DNA of 32,000 bases from contig CP060232.1 in assembly GCA_023898645.1 (NCBI GenBank), positions 840,001-872,000 of the forward strand. Reading direction: 5' to 3'. Below are positions 19,963-26,151 of this stretch, in pieces. Numbering within the stretch: the first letter of the stretch is position 1; every line of letters begins with the position of its first letter. The translations under genes were made by a program, and so were the position numbers. The notes beneath the pieces are model-generated. The model made no database searches, was not told where the DNA came from, and saw only the letters and a program-made list of their open reading frames with translations. Source of the stretch: Candidatus Saccharimonadota bacterium. GTDB lineage: Bacteria; Patescibacteriota; Saccharimonadia; Saccharimonadales; Saccharimonadaceae.

Positions 19963-21027
19963 ATGAGCCAGGCTCCAAGCAAGACAACTACAGAGACAAC
20001 AACCGTCGATATCGACGGTGCTGTAGAAGCAATTCTCGGTGCAATCGAACAGGAACGTGAGAGAGAGATCATCACGCGCCGTTTCGGTTTGTACGATCGT
20101 AAAGAAACTCTTGAGCAAATCGGTGAATTGCTTGGTATCACTCGTGAGCGTGTTCGCCAACTCGAAAAAGCTATCCTCGTCCGCCTAAAAATCGCTAGTA
20201 CGGAGGGTAAAATCCCTGCTGTTCAGACTGTCGAGAAGGCGATCGTTCGTGAACTAAGTGAGATGGGACGCCTAGCCACTGTCAACAACCTGGCCGACGC
20301 ACTACTTGACGGCAAAGCTACGCCACTTTCTCGTGCCCGTGTCGCATTTGCTGCTACTCTAGCGCCGAAACTAACAGTCGTCGATGAAAACGACAACTAT
20401 CGTGCCTCTGTCTGCATTGCCGAATATGGCGAAGAAAAGAAAATCCGCGAGCAAGTTGATGCTGTCGTTGCTGCTGTCAAAAAACACGGCGAACCATTGA
20501 CTATCGAGCAGCTTCATGAGCAGCTAGACCATGAACATCCGTCTCATGTACGTGCCCTTGCCACCGTTAGCAAGCATTTGTCTAACCTAAAAGACATGTG
20601 GGGCCTCAACAAATGGCCAACTGTTAATCCAAAGAATATTCGTGACAAGATCTACGTTATCTTGGCCGAAAACGGCAAGCCTATGCACTTTTCTGAAATT
20701 GCCGACTCTATCAAAGGCAGTAACTTTAGTCGCAAAAACGTCACCACCCAGGCTATTCACAACGAACTCATTAAAGACAAACGATTCGTCTTGATTGGCC
20801 GTGGCATTTACGCACTCGACACTTGGGGTTACAGCAAAGGCACAGTTGCCGATACAATTGCAGACATCTTGAAAAAGAGTAAAGAACCTCTACACCGTGA
20901 CGAAATCGTCAAGCGTGTACTAAAAAGTCGCCAAGTCAAAGAAACAACCATCTTGCTCAACCTGCAGAGCAAGCCGCAATTCAAACGAGTAGCAAAAGCT
21001 ACATACGCACTTGCTAACGAAAAGTAG
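19963..21027 (+). CDS. Sigma-70 region-4-like HTH protein with C-terminal winged-helix (HARE-HTH-like) repeats; not a complete sigma factor
   Basis: N-terminus: EREIITRRFGLYDRKETLEQIGELLGITRERVRQLEKAILVRLK resembles sigma70 region 4.2. I see no region 2. The C-terminal segments IRDKIYVILAENGKPMHFSEIADSI...FVLIGRGIYAL and VADTIADILKKSKEPLHRDEIVKRVL...FKRVAKATYAL resemble HARE-HTH/RpoE-delta N-domain repeats (from memory). Confidence 0.7.
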   Translation: MSQAPSKTTTETTTVDIDGAVEAILGAIEQEREREIITRRFGLYDRKETLEQIGELLGITRERVRQLEKAILVRLKIASTEGKIPAVQTVEKAIVRELSEMGRLATVNNLADALLDGKATPLSRARVAFAATLAPKLTVVDENDNYRASVCIAEYGEEKKIREQVDAVVAAVKKHGEPLTIEQLHEQLDHEHPSHVRALATVSKHLSNLKDMWGLNKWPTVNPKNIRDKIYVILAENGKPMHFSEIADSIKGSNFSRKNVTTQAIHNELIKDKRFVLIGRGIYALDTWGYSKGTVADTIADILKKSKEPLHRDEIVKRVLKSRQVKETTILLNLQSKPQFKRVAKATYALANEK

Positions 21028-21074
21028 CATAAGCTTGCTAACAGGGGCGTTAGGTGGGACAATGGTTAAGTAAT

Positions 21075-24000
21075 ATGGAAGTAATCTCCTGGATTATCAA
21101 TCTGATACTTTCCTGGTACGTATGGATACCAGCCGTATTAATACTTGGCTATTTGACGTGGCGAAATTATCAACAAATCGACGCCGTCAGGGCAATCGAG
21201 AGTACACTTCTTATTCTCGAAATCCCAAAGGCGAACGATAAATCCGAGCTCGCTGCCGAGCAGCTATTTGCGAGTCTGCATGGCATCCTACGCGACAAAG
21301 ACGAGCTCAAACAAACCGGCGGGATTCAAGAGCACCTTAGTTTCGAGATAGCATCGGTCAATGGCCAAATTCGTTTCTACGTCTGGGTACCGACAGCTCT
21401 TCGTAGCTTTGTCGAAGGTCAAATTTATTCACAATATCCAACCGTCCAAATTCACGAAGCCGACGAGGACTACGTTGCCCACGAGCGCGACCACAGCGTC
21501 GTCTATACGAGCGACATTACACTAACGGGCAGTGAATTTCTTCCGATAAAGACTTTCCAAAGTTTTGAGGTCGACCCCTTAGCTGGTATCACTGGTACAC
21601 TCGCCAAACTCGAAACAACCGGAGAGGAACTCTGGGTACAGGTGCTTGTGCGACCAATCGCGGATGACTGGCATAAATCAACAGAGCGCTGGATCAAGAA
21701 CGTGAAATCGGGTGGGGGAGGCTTCATGAGCGCCCTTAGCGAAGGGAAGGGATTCGACGCAAAATGGTTCCTAGGCCTACTTGAAGCATTATGGCGTCCG
21801 CCAGAACAAGGAGCAAACGGCAAGCCCGAGACTCCCGAACTTTCAGATCGTGACAAAACCCGCATCAGCGAAGCAGAAACAAAGGCAACAAAATTAGGAT
21901 ATCAAGTAAAAATCCGATTGGTGTATCTTGGTGAAAGTCAGACCAACGCCAAATTACAGATGCAGGCAATCGTAGGTACGTTTAAACAATTCAACAGTAC
22001 CAATCTTAATGGCTTCAAGATGACCAATGCCAGCTTCCGCAAAGAAGACCTAGAACGCTATCGAGCACGCTTATTTGCTGACAAAGGCTACATCTTAAAC
22101 ATCGAAGAAGTCGCCAGCGTCTTTCACTTACCGCATACCAATGTGGAGACGCCAAATATCGTCTGGGCATCTTCCAAAACCGCCGAACCGCCTGCAAAGC
22201 TACCCGTATTGACGGGTGATGATGCAATTGATGAAAACATCAGTGCCTTTGGATTGACGAATTTCCGCGGCATCAACCACCAGTTTGGCATGCTACGCGT
22301 TGATCGTTCGCGACACATGTACATCATCGGTCAAACTGGGGCAGGTAAGTCCGGCACACTCGCACTATTAGCACTCAGTGATATTTTCCATAATCAAGGG
22401 TACGCCATCATAGACCCGCACGGTGACTTTGCTGTCGACAATATGAAATTTATCCCTGCGTCACGTTTGAAAGATGTCGTTTATTTCAACCCCGCCGACA
22501 CGGCGTATCCGCTTGGGTTTAACCCCCTTGAAGTAACTGACCCCAACATGAAATCGAACATTAGCTCCGAAGTTATCGGCGTACTAGAACGTATGTTTAG
22601 CAATAGCTGGGGGCCACGTCTCGAGTATATTCTGCGGTATACCATCTTGGCCCTCCTTGACCGACCAGAGACAACCATGCTCGATATCACGCGTATGCTG
22701 ACAGACAAAAAATTCCGCAAAGAAACGCTCTCATACTGCAAAGATACCGTCGTTCTACAATTCTGGAACATAGAATTTAGTAGTTGGACAGAGAAGTTTC
22801 AAGCAGAGGCAATCGCTCCGATCCTCAACAAAGTCGGCGCCTTTACGGCTAATCCTATCATCCGTAATATCATCGGTCAGCCCAAATCAACCTTTAACAT
22901 CCGCCAGATGATGGACGAAGGCAAGATTTTAATTGTCAACTTATCGAAAGGCTTGCTCGGCGAGGACAACTCAAGTGTACTTGGAGCATTCTTGGTGACC
23001 AAGATTCAATTGGCGGCCATGAGCCGTAGCGACATCCCAAATATCGAAGACCGCCGTCCATTCTACCTGTATGTTGACGAGTTTCAGAACTTCGCGACCG
23101 ATTCGTTTGCCACAATTTTGTCCGAAGCCCGCAAATACGGCTTGAATCTAACCGTGGCGAATCAATATATTTCACAGATGAGCGAAACTGTTCGTGATGC
23201 CGTTTTTGGCAACGTAGGTACCATGATTAGTTTCCGTGTATCTGCCGACGATGCGCCAATCCTGTCTAAGCAATTCGAGCCACAGTTTGAGGCAAATGAC
23301 CTCTTGCAGATGCACAATCGAAACTTCGTCATAAACATGGTCATCAGGGGAGAGAAGGCCCCTGCCTTTAGCGCACGTACACTCCAGTTGCCACCAGCAC
23401 AAACAGACAACTCTGCGGTTATTATCGAACACACACGAGCAAACTATAGCCGTAAACGAGAAGACGTAGAGCAGGCTATCAATAATCTCATACAGCCACC
23501 GGAGCATTTGCAACGCAAAGGTCCCGGCAATCCAAAAACACCCGCCCAGGCTAAACAGTGGCCAATTGATGAAGGCGCAAAACCTGTAGCTTCGGCAACA
23601 AGGCAGCCCGCAAGTACTGAGCCAAATCGACCAAAATTCATCATAGAGACGCCACAGGGAGAAGCGGCCGTCGCTAACAGAGTCGAAACAACACCAAGGC
23701 CAACTCTAGGTCCCAAACCAGTCACTAGGGTAGAGGATGATGATAAATCCAAGGAAGTACCACCAAAATCTGCTGATGAACCAAAAGAAGAGCAACCCGT
23801 AAAGAAAAAACGCACCCGTAATCGTCGCAAAAAATCTCAAGCAAAAGAAGCCGACGACAACCAAAAAGACGACGCTAGCAAGAACGCAAAGACCGAGCAA
23901 ACGTCAGAACCAAAACCTGACACACGCGAACGTGAAAAGAAATCCGATACGCAGCCAGAACGTAAACAAAGCCGAGCCGACGAGCGGCAGCCACGAGTCG

Positions 24001-24104
24001 CCGCTGCTACTACAAAACCGGAACCGATAAAATCAGAATCAAAGCCATCACCATCGGAAAAGCAAAAAGACGACGGTACTCTGGGACTGCTCAAAATCCG
24101 CTAG
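21075..24104 (+). CDS. Membrane-anchored TraD/TraG/VirD4-like (type IV coupling protein-like) P-loop ATPase with an unassigned N-domain and a Lys/Glu/Pro-rich tail
   Basis: N-terminal TM segment (ISWIINLILSWYVWIPAVLILGYL). About 400 aa that I cannot assign. Walker A HMYIIGQTGAGKSG. Walker B RRPFYLYVDEFQNFAT. TraD/TraG-C-like LSEARKYGLNLTVANQYISQM. The last 230 aa or so are low complexity (..KKKRTRNRRKKSQAKEADDNQKDD..). A GTG at 21054 is an alternative start. Confidence 0.8.
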   Translation: MEVISWIINLILSWYVWIPAVLILGYLTWRNYQQIDAVRAIESTLLILEIPKANDKSELAAEQLFASLHGILRDKDELKQTGGIQEHLSFEIASVNGQIRFYVWVPTALRSFVEGQIYSQYPTVQIHEADEDYVAHERDHSVVYTSDITLTGSEFLPIKTFQSFEVDPLAGITGTLAKLETTGEELWVQVLVRPIADDWHKSTERWIKNVKSGGGGFMSALSEGKGFDAKWFLGLLEALWRPPEQGANGKPETPELSDRDKTRISEAETKATKLGYQVKIRLVYLGESQTNAKLQMQAIVGTFKQFNSTNLNGFKMTNASFRKEDLERYRARLFADKGYILNIEEVASVFHLPHTNVETPNIVWASSKTAEPPAKLPVLTGDDAIDENISAFGLTNFRGINHQFGMLRVDRSRHMYIIGQTGAGKSGTLALLALSDIFHNQGYAIIDPHGDFAVDNMKFIPASRLKDVVYFNPADTAYPLGFNPLEVTDPNMKSNISSEVIGVLERMFSNSWGPRLEYILRYTILALLDRPETTMLDITRMLTDKKFRKETLSYCKDTVVLQFWNIEFSSWTEKFQAEAIAPILNKVGAFTANPIIRNIIGQPKSTFNIRQMMDEGKILIVNLSKGLLGEDNSSVLGAFLVTKIQLAAMSRSDIPNIEDRRPFYLYVDEFQNFATDSFATILSEARKYGLNLTVANQYISQMSETVRDAVFGNVGTMISFRVSADDAPILSKQFEPQFEANDLLQMHNRNFVINMVIRGEKAPAFSARTLQLPPAQTDNSAVIIEHTRANYSRKREDVEQAINNLIQPPEHLQRKGPGNPKTPAQAKQWPIDEGAKPVASATRQPASTEPNRPKFIIETPQGEAAVANRVETTPRPTLGPKPVTRVEDDDKSKEVPPKSADEPKEEQPVKKKRTRNRRKKSQAKEADDNQKDDASKNAKTEQTSEPKPDTREREKKSDTQPERKQSRADERQPRVAAATTKPEPIKSESKPSPSEKQKDDGTLGLLKIR

Positions 24105-24150: not shown

Positions 24151-24456
24151 ATGGATCAACAATCAATACAATCACTCCTAGGCGGCTCAGAGTCACAAAA
24201 CCAGCAGCAGCTCGTTAATCAGCTGATAGATAAAGTGCAGCCGCAATTGCAGCTGCTAATCACCATCAGCATCGTACTGTCTATCATAATCGTCGTCTTG
24301 ATGCTTGTGAATTGGCTTTACAAATGGCGTGTCGAACGAGCTATATTACGCATGGACAAAAATCTGCAAATACTCGTCGACAAGCATGTTGATGTGTCTT
24401 CGAACGAAAAGGGTGGCACAAAATTTACACCCGAAAAGCAAACAGAACAAAAATAG
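24151..24456 (+). CDS. Small single-TM protein (101 aa), Gln-rich N-terminus
   Basis: MDQQSIQSLLGGSESQNQQQLVNQL...LLITISIVLSIIIVVLMLVNWLY... No obvious SD. Its stop codon lies inside the left copy of the AAAAATAGAAC repeat. Confidence 0.5.
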   Translation: MDQQSIQSLLGGSESQNQQQLVNQLIDKVQPQLQLLITISIVLSIIIVVLMLVNWLYKWRVERAILRMDKNLQILVDKHVDVSSNEKGGTKFTPEKQTEQK

Positions 24457-24459
24457 AAC
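24444..24459. repeat. Left copy of the direct repeat GAACAAAAATAGAAC (AGAAC-AAAAAT-AGAAC)
   Basis: The 15-mer at 24445-24459 is identical to 25157-25171. Confidence 0.9.
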
Positions 24460-24530
24460 ACTTTCTAGTTGTTCCTGAAGGCCTACCAGATATCATACGC
24501 TTGTAGATATAAGCTTTGGGAGCGTAATCT

Positions 24531-24549
24531 ACCCCTGTTCGACCCCTGT
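24531..24549. repeat. ACCCCTGT x2 direct repeat, 11-bp period
   Basis: ACCCCTGT at 24531-24538 and at 24542-24549. Confidence 0.85.
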
Positions 24550-24973
24550 AAATATAAAGTTAGGTGAATGGGCAATAATACATATAAATGCGCACAGACA
24601 AACGACAAACGAGAACATAAACAAATAAGCAGGGCAGAAAGTAGGGCAAACACAAAAATATACACAGAACGAAATGAAATAAGGCCAAAATACATATGTG
24701 CACGTTCACGATCAATACAGTGTCTTAACGTCGCACAATATATCTTTTACGACATAAAGTTTATAAACATAAGATGATTCACTATGCCTTTATATTAACC
24801 TCCAATAGGGGGGTCTGCTCGTATAAACACCTAGACGTAACTATACTCGCGTGTTTACATGTGTATGTCGCTCTACGTGTATAACATTAACGGCCTGCCA
24901 ATGACCTGATCCTGGGAGTTAGTTATCACGGGCGTCATACGTCGCTTTTCACAACACCCTACATAGTGAGACG

Positions 24974-25005
24974 CATTTGACTTTGCTTAAAATACATTTG
25001 ACTTT
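24974..25005. repeat. CATTTGACTTT x2 direct repeat, 21-bp period
   Basis: Identical 11-mers at 24974-24984 and 24995-25005. Confidence 0.85.
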
Positions 25006-25149
25006 TAGGTTTTTCCACAGTCTTGTAATTATTTCCAGTAGATTTTCGTCTCCTCTTTTTTCGCCTGCCTCCCCTACTTTTCACGCAGTATTTGCTTTTT
25101 TGTTAATTTGATATGTTAATATAGTTTTTTTCATATTGCGCATATTTAC

Positions 25150-25171
25150 AAAAATAGAACAAAAATAGAAC
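25150..25171. repeat. AAAAATAGAAC x2 tandem repeat (11-bp period); right copy of the 15-bp direct repeat
   Basis: AAAAATAGAAC occurs at 25150-25160 and 25161-25171. A third copy lies at 24449-24459. Confidence 0.9.
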
Positions 25172-25209
25172 TTACGAGAGAGAGGTGAAGGGAGTATGTC
25201 GCATCAAAA

Positions 25210-26151
25210 CTATCGATAAAACGCCTCGCCTGATACGCGGACATCTATATACTTTGGCGTAATATGATGCTTGTTGAAATAGTGAATGGCATTGAGCATA
25301 TCCTCTACCTGCTCCCCTACTGGACGGTCTAGTGAGAGTTTAACTGGGTACTTATGCCCTTTCACTACTACTTCGATTTGATGCGTAGTACCCGCTGGGA
25401 TGATTGCCTCGCTGATAGTAAGGTTAGAGGCGCGCGCCAGAGTTACGGTCCTACCAACGAAGCGCAAGAACTGGCTGCTTGCAATCGTCGCTCCTGCTGC
25501 CTGCGGAATACTGCTATTATCTATGATTTTTACAGTGGGATTGTCGAAATAATTAACCTTGAACGACACTCCATCTTGATCAACGTAATACTGCGTCTGT
25601 CCTATGAGCCAACCTGCAATTGGCCGTCGGAAGAGTAGATCAAACTGGGTAGTAGCAAACCCTGACGCGCCACCTACCTCAGCATCGGCAACTTCTGGCA
25701 CGGATTGTGACAAATATTTTGACAATTCATTTATATTGAGTGCAAAACGTAATCTTTCAATCGGATGAATGGCAAAATAATCGTTTATTGCCTTTTTGTA
25801 GCGTGACTCATCAATAGATATACTATCCGTGGCGGTAACATTTACACCAGCCGTAAAGTCGTACAGTAACCACGTCAAAAAGCACGACGCAGCGACTACG
25901 ACGACAAGTGCAGTCATAATCATCCGCCTGTGAGCCGTCAAATGATGAACATGTGCTCTTGGCGAGCGAAGATCGCCGGTCAACTCACCTGCACTTTTAA
26001 CTTGGAAAGACATACTGCCAACTAGCGTACGGTTGCGCCGAAACATTTTTTGTCCATTGCGTTCAGCCGTATTTTGCTGCTCCAATTGTTCAGCGTTCAG
26101 TCGCCGACGCTTCGGAAGTTCATTACTCTTTTTTGCCCACGGAAGTTTCAT
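25210..26151 (-). CDS. ftsQ: Cell division protein FtsQ (basic N-terminal tail, TM, POTRA)
   Basis: Position after murG. Single TM (MIMTALVVVVAASCFLTWLLY) followed by a POTRA/FtsQ-like domain. Sequence similarity is weak, so the call rests mainly on architecture and synteny. Confidence 0.7.
   Translation of the reverse strand: MKLPWAKKSNELPKRRRLNAEQLEQQNTAERNGQKMFRRNRTLVGSMSFQVKSAGELTGDLRSPRAHVHHLTAHRRMIMTALVVVVAASCFLTWLLYDFTAGVNVTATDSISIDESRYKKAINDYFAIHPIERLRFALNINELSKYLSQSVPEVADAEVGGASGFATTQFDLLFRRPIAGWLIGQTQYYVDQDGVSFKVNYFDNPTVKIIDNSSIPQAAGATIASSQFLRFVGRTVTLARASNLTISEAIIPAGTTHQIEVVVKGHKYPVKLSLDRPVGEQVEDMLNAIHYFNKHHITPKYIDVRVSGEAFYR

Follow-up and report, generated by a model that had tools for sequence, protein, structure and literature searches.

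What lies in the gap between two blocks of genes that run into one another at the end of a division and cell wall (dcw) cluster, and what are the repeats doing there with which this gap is packed? The stretch of DNA analysed (the window, 32,000 nucleotides) comes from the genome of Candidatus Saccharimonadota bacterium (assembly GCA_023898645.1, contig CP060232.1), a member of the order Saccharimonadales, and corresponds to G000:C1:840001-872000, where G000 denotes the source genome, which is closed, 1,134,346 bp in length and 99.98% complete. The gap, at 24457-25209 of the window, is bordered by a 101-amino-acid open reading frame (ORF) on the plus strand (24151-24456) and a 313-amino-acid ORF on the minus strand (25210-26151). 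It comprises 753 bp of non-coding DNA, in agreement with the figure of about 750 bp in a preliminary description of the sequence, and the ORFs listed within it are all of 70 amino acids or fewer. That description considered for the zone a replication terminus or recombination site, a partition or initiator-binding array, the scar of an integrated element or a long-hairpin RNA, and its list of repeats omitted a 28-bp palindrome at 24728-24755. As judged from comparative sequence analysis, this palindrome is very probably the dif site of the chromosome, at which an Xer recombinase would act, and the zone around it would be the chromosome-dimer-resolution locus.

Of all the elements in the zone the palindrome is the best conserved; it is nearly invariant across the 22 loci of the genus, and eight of the 11 positions of its two arms are complementary. 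The gap was recovered by a DNA search in 21 of the 22 same-genus genomes, with the same gene order on both sides, and when 23 loci are aligned nearly invariant islands are visible between spacers that vary, the core being the strongest of these islands. Beyond the genus, a 24-nucleotide pattern derived from the core was searched, with up to three mismatches, against 151 genomes of the order belonging to 71 families. It matched 122 of the genomes, in single copy in 121 and in two copies in one, and the reversed control pattern gave no matches in the same search. The genome with two copies (G042:C3:67836 and G042:C15:24602), which lie on two contigs, is of 1.2 Mb and 95% complete, and it is possible that mixed strains, contamination or a second replicon account for the additional one. 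The order consensus of the core is GTCGCACAA-TGTATA-TTTTGCGAC, the centre of which, TGTATA, we take to be identical to that of the E. coli dif site. Among 115 other Patescibacteria a variant of the core, GTCGCACAA-TGTATC-TT[A/G/T]TGCGAC, was found in single copy in 31, and the phylum variant in the form GTCGCACAA-TGTATC-TTGTGCGAC has perfectly inverted arms of 9 bp. No second dif-like site was detected in G000, where the next best match has five mismatches. Full-text searches of the literature found no paper that pairs dif with the Saccharibacteria or the Patescibacteria.

Besides the 28-bp architecture and the single copy, the features that mark a dif site here are an encoded Xer recombinase, an FtsK with a gamma domain and guide motifs that converge on the site. 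There is one tyrosine recombinase in G000, encoded by a single gene of the Phage_integrase family at 1,000.9 kb, 136 kb from dif. Against the NCBIfam models it scores 248 bits for XerD, 242 bits for XerC and 233.7 bits for XerA_Arch, the last of these exceeding the cut-off of 220. The FtsK of G000 has all of the 4TM, alpha, beta and gamma domains. The motif GGGNAGGG, which we take to be the consensus of the FtsK-orienting polar sequences (KOPS) of E. coli, a comparison that serves only as a lead, is present in 49 copies in G000. Of these, 44 obey a simple rule: up to 861,744, counted from about 0, they are on the plus strand, and from 867,118 onward they are on the minus strand. Their polarity is independent of the strand of the surrounding gene. 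The best split of the copies with two change points brackets dif, which is at 864,728 on the chromosome (permutation p <= 0.0005). A switch of strand between 863,346 and 865,070 is seen for AGGGGA (165 copies), and the cumulative gene-strand bias of G000 peaks at 864,104, the strand statistics given here resting on crude gene calls that take in long ORFs only.

The reversal of GGGNAGGG at the candidate dif is seen in five complete genomes from five families. Apart from G000 these are G092 (last plus-strand copy at 113,067, dif at 119,078, first minus-strand copy at 129,535), G118 (773,721, 790,070 and 790,603, in the same order), G070 (332,601, 332,926 and 335,498) and G102 (115,435, 117,297 and 125,495); for G027 the comparison covers some of the GGGNAGGG copies, and the related genomes compared are not independent samples. 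GGGNAGGG also reverses strand near the origin. With either dnaA or this other switch point of GGGNAGGG taken as the origin, the short arm from the origin to dif amounts to 25-30% of the chromosome in G000, G092, G118 and G102. An unbiased scan of 8-mers for polar motifs gave many weakly skewed G/T-rich words, none of which was decisive, and GTAGGG was less polar than GGGNAGGG. It would seem likely that GGGNAGGG is the motif that guides FtsK in these bacteria. Following the established Xer/FtsK pathway, the single Xer-family recombinase would bind both arms of dif, the polar GGGNAGGG motifs would steer FtsK to dif from both chromosome arms, and FtsK would activate strand exchange at division such that dimeric chromosomes are unlinked.

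The position of this site on the chromosome is unusual. The preliminary description proposed looking for a change of sign of the GC skew at the zone, and the skew analysis gave no such change at dif. The cumulative GC skew of G000 peaks at 553,278 and the GC3 skew, calculated from third codon positions, at 541,818. In the stretch from 565 to 864 kb the skew is, for the genes of either strand, that of the chromosome's minus-leading half; 67% of the coding bases there are on the plus strand, head-on to the inferred direction of replication, and GGGNAGGG favours the plus strand by 10:1. A dif that is set apart from the skew switch is also seen in G017 of the same genus (dif at 98.5 kb, switch between 240 and 290 kb) and in G118 of another family (dif at 790 kb, switch at 515-540 kb). 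In G027 the change of sign of the total GC skew does coincide with dif; the GC3 skew of this genome is about zero, so the total skew there only mirrors gene orientation and the genome is uninformative. A published Saccharibacteria genome has been described as having an ordinary symmetric skew (PMC6031116), which agrees with the skew alone as seen here. No diverged dif was found near the skew terminus of G000, the best candidate, near 561 kb, having seven mismatches, which is the level expected by chance. The dif locus is the point on which gene orientation and GGGNAGGG polarity converge, and not the point at which the forks meet according to the mutational skew. At the other end of the axis, the GC-skew minimum of G000 is at 6,911, beside dnaA. 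Four DnaA boxes (two of TTTTCCACA, one of TGTGGATAA and one of GGTGGATAA) fall within 115 bp at this minimum, between dnaA on the minus strand and a probable rpmH gene, and the segment that they occupy, G000:C1:9377-9491, is likely to be oriC.

Around the core the gap contains an array of motifs (Table 1) that spans 560-730 bp and is conserved across the order, for which 21 loci were compared, drawn from 20 other families and a second genus of this family. The preliminary description reported an identical 15-mer at both edges of the zone. This 15-mer, GAACAAAAATAGAAC, is indeed present at 24445 and 25157, and the exact direct repeat is one nucleotide longer, the 16-mer AGAACAAAAATAGAAC at 24444-24459 and 25156-25171. 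Exact repeats of 15 nucleotides or more were obtained in none of 500 dinucleotide-preserving shuffles (mean 9.2, maximum 13). These bracket repeats are all but private to the locus, with AAAAATAGAAC occurring three times in the gap and four times in the whole 1.13-Mb genome, and with GAACA-N6-GAACA absent from the rest of G000; nhmmer likewise found no other copies of the conserved blocks in G000. The phased repeats that had been described, (A)CCCCTGT twice with an 11-bp period, CATTTGACTTT twice with a 21-bp period and AAAAATAGAAC three times, were all located where they had been placed. The same is true of the purine-rich block (72% purine) and the pyrimidine-rich block (25020-25130, 71% pyrimidine), between which an imperfect inverted repeat aligns at 28 of 44 positions. 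As the plus strand is purine-rich to the left of dif and pyrimidine-rich to its right, the purine-rich strand reads toward dif on each side.

Table 1. Features of the dif locus and of the genes that converge on it (window positions).
Feature	Position	Strand	Remarks
Gene for sigma70-region-4/HARE-HTH protein	19963-21027	+	Pfam; reads toward dif
Gene for VirD4/TraG-like ATPase	21054-24104	+	Pfam; reads toward dif
Small membrane ORF, 101 amino acids	24151-24456	+	ORF list; stop codon lies inside left bracket repeat
Left bracket repeat, AGAACAAAAATAGAACA (GAACA-N6-GAACA)	24444-24460	+	Half-sites 11 bp apart; kept in almost all genus loci
Two (A)CCCCTGT boxes	24528-24549	+	Starts at 24528 and 24539, 11-bp period; G-rich strand is minus
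Purine-rich, T-poor tract with AGTAGGGCA (24640-24648)	24590-24700	+	72% purine, 10% T
Putative dif-type Xer core, ACGTCGCACAA/TATATC/TTTTACGACAT	24728-24755		28-bp imperfect palindrome, 11-6-11
Right flank of dif, GATGATT (24773-24779) to AGGGGGG (24806-24812)	24773-24812	+	Conserved
TTCACAACACC box	24948-24958	+	Kept across genus
Two CATTTGACTTT boxes	24974-25005	+	Starts at 24974 and 24995, 21-bp period
DnaA box TTTTCCACA, followed by G	25011-25019	+	oriC type
CTCCCCTAC, then TTTTCACG	25069-25085	+	CTCCCCTAC G-rich on minus strand, toward dif; conserved in genus
Third TTGAC-type box ATTTGCTTTTTT, then GATAT..TAATATAGTTTTTTT	25090-25131	+	Conserved in genus and order
Right bracket, tandem AAAAATAGAAC (two copies) including 16-mer AGAACAAAAATAGAAC	25150-25172	+	Invariant in genus
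Purine/G-rich tract before stop codon of ftsQ-like gene	25176-25196	+	Present in most order loci
ftsQ-like gene, 313 amino acids	25210-26151	-	Final dcw gene; murG, ftsW, mraY and ftsI upstream

When the order loci are placed on a common scale with dif as reference, the left bracket, a 17-mer of the form TG[A/T]ACAWWWT[A/G]CGAACAT, is found at -172 to -208 in 17 of the 21 and the right bracket 17-mer, in the same orientation, at +333 to +495 in 20. In most loci the bracket motifs are positioned 0-70 nucleotides past the 3' ends of both convergent genes. To the left of dif, the (A)CCCCTGT boxes are kept in the genus and often have an inverted copy of ACAGGGGT immediately upstream of them, and a purine-rich tract with (A)GTAGG(G) is present in most loci of the order. 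To its right, GATGATWA lies at exactly +42 in seven of the order loci and YAGGGGAGT at +64, with its core at +63 to +74 in 13 of them. Boxes of the type TTTGAC(T/A)TTT number two or three in each locus across the order, and TTTGACWTT has only 31 copies in three regions that span about 98% of G000. A DnaA box, TTWTCCACA, is on the plus strand at +178 to +345 in all 21 loci and is often fused to TTGAC. The motifs TTTCCCCT[G/A]C and CGTGAAAA recur across the order, the latter in either orientation, and the order array further holds TTTCCCCTGC and TATAGTTTTTT. Upstream of the dcw operon, at about G000:C1:873,623 and some 1.6 kb past the end of the window, two further DnaA-box matches fall within 600 bp, so that with the box at 25011 the operon is flanked by DnaA boxes at both ends.

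The motifs of the array are most likely binding sites for proteins, which would build a nucleoprotein complex around dif. Such a complex could regulate Xer/FtsK or could shield dif from the two transcription units that converge on it. The motifs of interest for binding include the bracket motif, the CCCCTGT boxes and the TTTGACTTTT boxes. The bracket resembles a dif half-site, with TTTT[G/A]CGAAC in the bracket corresponding to TTTT[G/A]CGAC in the core. At the variable position the bracket has G in 10 of 24 copies from genomes with the G form of dif, compared with 1 of about 15 from genomes with the A form, as counted by eye and uncorrected for phylogeny. The tendency of bracket and dif to agree within a genome gives a weak lead that Xer itself might bind the brackets. 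The sigma-like protein encoded nearby was considered as the protein that binds the TTGAC boxes, an idea weakened by the distribution of the two, the protein being widespread in the phylum and the boxes specific to the order.

The two blocks of genes that converge on the gap consist of the sigma-like gene, the VirD4-like gene and the 101-amino-acid ORF on the plus strand and of the dcw genes on the minus strand. In the preliminary description the dcw cluster was said to end with ftsQ. The position of the gene is as described, but its family is not established by the protein models, there being no match to the 313-amino-acid protein in Pfam or NCBIfam even at E <= 10; its identity as ftsQ comes from its position and a single predicted membrane segment only. 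The ftsA and ftsZ genes, the expected continuation of the cluster, are neighbours of each other on the same strand (minus) at G000:C1:944345-946570, 80 kb from the dcw cluster. They are thus simply encoded elsewhere, and the repeats that occupy the gap are conserved in the related genomes, contrary to the refuting case named in the preliminary description, in which relatives would keep none of them. Homologues of the 101-amino-acid ORF, with 30-47% identity, were found by tblastn at the same place in 11 of 21 same-genus loci (L008-L028). Across the order the sigma-like gene is upstream of dif in 21 of the 21 loci and is followed in nine of them by the VirD4-like gene; murG (21 of 21) and homologues of the ftsQ-like gene (15 of 21) converge on dif from the opposite side.

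The VirD4-like gene is also a neighbour of dif outside the order. In nine of the 21 order loci, and in 10 of the 20 loci from other classes of Patescibacteria (L133, L139-L143, L145-L147 and L149), such a gene points toward dif from no more than 3 kb away. For the latter about 1% would be expected by chance, an estimate based on some two such genes per genome (PMC12102498). Near dif the sigma-like gene often sits in the same block, before the VirD4-like gene. The adjacency suggests either a functional link between the VirD4-like gene and dif or a very old gene block. As to the sigma-like protein, it nearly reaches the cut-off for the delta subunit of RNA polymerase (41.5 against 42 bits), and full-length homologues are present in about 60% of the Patescibacteria sampled. 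Its sigma-region-4 segment includes TRERVRQLE, which matches the residues with which sigma-70 contacts the -35 element.

How the layout of the locus is to be understood in terms of replication can be answered in several ways. It is possible, though on balance doubtful, that in Saccharimonadales chromosomes the axis from origin to dif is uncoupled from replication and that the cassette conserved in the order sustains resolution and division. In that case dif, GGGNAGGG polarity and gene orientation would together define the short arm of about 25-30% of the chromosome while the forks would meet opposite the origin, and one fork would consequently travel on a regular basis 150-310 kb past dif, meeting most genes of that stretch head-on. 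The cassette of brackets, DnaA box and TTGAC boxes, abutting the end of the dcw cluster, would sustain both dimer resolution and division; the bracket repeats may serve as additional half-sites for Xer, and the VirD4-like ATPase near dif may be a second FtsK-like DNA translocase. A DnaA-centred array with a regulatory or origin-like role, for example a control locus of the datA/DARS type or a dormant or plasmid-type origin, that merely lies beside dif appears unlikely. The oriC-type TTWTCCACA box in 21 of 21 order loci, its conserved distance from dif, the phased AT-rich repeats and the additional DnaA boxes at 873.6 kb, upstream of the dcw operon, would all suit such an array. However, each locus has a single box, apart from one locus with two, as against four within 115 bp at oriC, the skew has its minimum beside dnaA and no inflection here, gene orientation at the site is convergent and not divergent, and no Rep-type gene was noticed nearby. 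Of the partition or initiator-binding array that had been proposed, what survives is one conserved oriC-type DnaA box, with neither a cluster of boxes nor a skew inflection to accompany it. A replication terminus or fork trap, in which the bracket repeats would be Ter-like sites, is very unlikely. Gene orientation and GGGNAGGG polarity do converge at dif, and in G027 the total GC skew changes sign there, but in that genome the total skew follows gene orientation. In G000 the GC3 skew flips, for genes on both strands, near 542-553 kb and not at 864.7 kb, the displacement in G017 and G118 is alike, and the brackets are direct repeats whereas a trap needs inverted ones. The suggestion of a terminus or recombination site is consequently retained for its second half, a probable dif-type Xer site on which orientation and GGGNAGGG converge, and not for a terminus, the skew having its peaks elsewhere.

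Nor is a role for the zone at the level of RNA favoured. The TTGAC-type boxes might drive transcription of at least one non-coding RNA, be it a long hairpin or a small RNA antisense to the ftsQ-like gene, and the array has features that would be in keeping with this, namely conserved islands with spacers of variable length between them, plus-strand hexamers like TATAAT together with -35-like boxes (TTGACT/TTGACA), and G-rich and C-rich boxes that could pair. Searches of the zone with Rfam, using both gathering and E-value thresholds, and with ARAGORN gave no match except a chance microRNA at E = 4; the RNase P RNA and the transfer-messenger RNA of G000 are located elsewhere, and a 6S RNA was not found in this genome. 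RNAalifold on the genus alignment returned an energy of 0 on both strands outside the palindrome. G-rich and C-rich boxes from one and the same genome (-20.4 kcal/mol) pair no better than those from different genomes (-20.1 kcal/mol), so that genome-specific covariation is lacking, and z-scores of -0.05 and -0.06 from the folding of single sequences indicate no excess stability. The long-hairpin RNA of the preliminary description is not borne out by these values. Reading the TTGAC boxes as sigma-70 promoters was also rejected, as the -10-like partners are 19-23 nucleotides away or are of the TGAAAA type without an A at position 2. Several of the motifs can be found in either orientation, as would suit the binding of proteins more than it would an RNA, and an RNA is most improbable as the explanation of the zone. 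It is barely credible that an integrated element, for instance one exploiting Xer and responsible for the arrival of the VirD4-like gene, left the 16-bp repeats behind as att-like scars. The repeats are identical direct repeats enclosing a segment, the left and right copies are in some families equal to one another and yet differ between families, and a VirD4-like gene adjoins dif in many Patescibacteria. However, all 22 loci of the genus and about 20 of the 21 of the order have the interior along with the two repeats, an empty site was seen in 0 of 43 loci, the interior contains the only dif of the genome, with no second dif-like site, and the VirD4-like gene is outside the bracketed segment; the proposed scar can be set aside on these grounds. 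Equally hard to credit is a roadblock or unloading platform for complexes of the structural maintenance of chromosomes (SMC) type around dif, as in Thermococcus kodakarensis or at the XerD-binding XDS sites of B. subtilis. The layout, with dif in a long AT-rich and A-tract-rich gap between convergent genes, is a match (PMC11840125), and the likeness of the bracket to a dif half-site could be read in the same way, but no SMC hinge domain was found in G000 or four relatives and the array is missing around dif in other classes of Patescibacteria.

Several observations weigh against the identification of the zone as the dif locus or against a function for the array around the core. The distance from dif to the skew shift point is 311 kb, or 27.5% of the genome, while published dif sites are within about 1.4% of the genome from that point, with outliers below 3% (PMC3025954). 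Location at the shift point is the one usual mark of a dif site that fails here, and it is a correlate that lies outside the mechanism of recombination. The array is missing around dif in 20 loci of other Patescibacteria classes; it is therefore order-specific and is not needed for the function of dif as such. An OmpR/ArcA/WalR-type regulator was considered as a universal partner of the brackets and is rejected in that role, since the complete genome G027 has both brackets and no Trans_reg_C match. No SMC hinge (PF06470) was found in five of five genomes (G000, G001, G002, G003 and G025), a search that did not extend to MukB- and Mks-type condensins. Finally, there may be promoters or unstructured RNA in the T-rich right half of the gap.

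The dif reading has consequences beyond this genome. A phylum-wide dif consensus together with the GGGNAGGG guide motif would provide a handle on chromosome segregation in tiny host-dependent bacteria, and with the two as an anchor assembled genomes could be oriented and checked. The locus departs from the textbook layout in two respects. It has dif inside a conserved array with an oriC-type DnaA box and brackets found at no other place in the genome, which points to further proteins acting at dif, and it has dif, guide-motif polarity and gene orientation a quarter of a chromosome away from the terminus defined by skew. This displacement, if confirmed by coverage, would be a natural test of whether dimer resolution and strand bias depend on the point at which forks meet. 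The 'orphan' coupling proteins of Patescibacteria have been left without an assigned role (PMC12102498), and the VirD4-like gene that recurs beside dif offers a testable idea for them.

The closest parallel among known systems is dif-XerCD-FtsK-KOPS of E. coli and B. subtilis, with which the locus shares a 28-bp site of 11-6-11 architecture, one site per chromosome and an FtsK gamma domain; polar GGGNAGGG motifs converging on dif would, on our understanding of E. coli KOPS and as a lead only, be a further likeness. In contrast to the XerC and XerD pair of those bacteria, there is one recombinase here and the arms of the site are nearly symmetric, and, unlike their dif, the site is embedded in a conserved motif array of 560-730 bp. 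It also differs from published dif sites in being displaced by 27.5%, rather than by less than 3%, from the skew shift (PMC3025954). With XerS/difSL of streptococci, XerH/difH of epsilon-proteobacteria and archaeal XerA/dif the locus has in common the action expected of one Xer on a near-palindromic site, in line with the XerA_Arch cut-off being passed. The core is of 28 bp as compared with 31 bp for difSL and about 40 bp for difH, and FtsK and polar GGGNAGGG set the system apart from that of archaeal XerA. The xerS and xerH genes presumably adjoin their sites, whereas the xer gene here is 136 kb from dif.

The core resembles published dif sites such as that of T. kodakarensis, as quoted in PMC11840125, and like the boundary element of this archaeon it is found in an unusually long, AT-rich and A-tract-rich gap between convergent genes. 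In T. kodakarensis it is the flanking DNA, and not dif or Xer, that has a separate architectural function, for which Smc-ScpAB and the nucleoid protein TrmBL2 are needed (PMC11840125). In the present case no SMC hinge was found, and an SMC boundary like that of Thermococcus is improbable; the flank here is made up of discrete, sequence-specific motifs. A comparison can also be made with the plasmid sites cer and psi, where the DNA flanking the Xer core has, over some 180-200 bp, repeats that bind proteins. At these sites the accessory sequences bind PepA together with ArgR, or else the response regulator ArcA. On its minus strand the bracket (TGTTC-N6-TGTTC, 11-bp period) resembles what we take to be the direct repeats recognised by ArcA and the OmpR family, a likeness that serves as a lead only; unlike psi with ArcA, the bracket motif is carried by a complete genome, G027, from which an OmpR-type regulator is absent. 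Here, moreover, the motifs are on both sides of the core, and the site is chromosomal, with FtsK and polar GGGNAGGG. Xer is also used for integration at dif by the gonococcal genetic island and further elements, with which the locus shares a gene related to type IV secretion, here VirD4/TraG-like, right beside dif. Unlike such elements, this locus has neither a second dif-like site nor further genes for secretion or a relaxase in the vicinity, and its arrangement is vertically inherited across the order.

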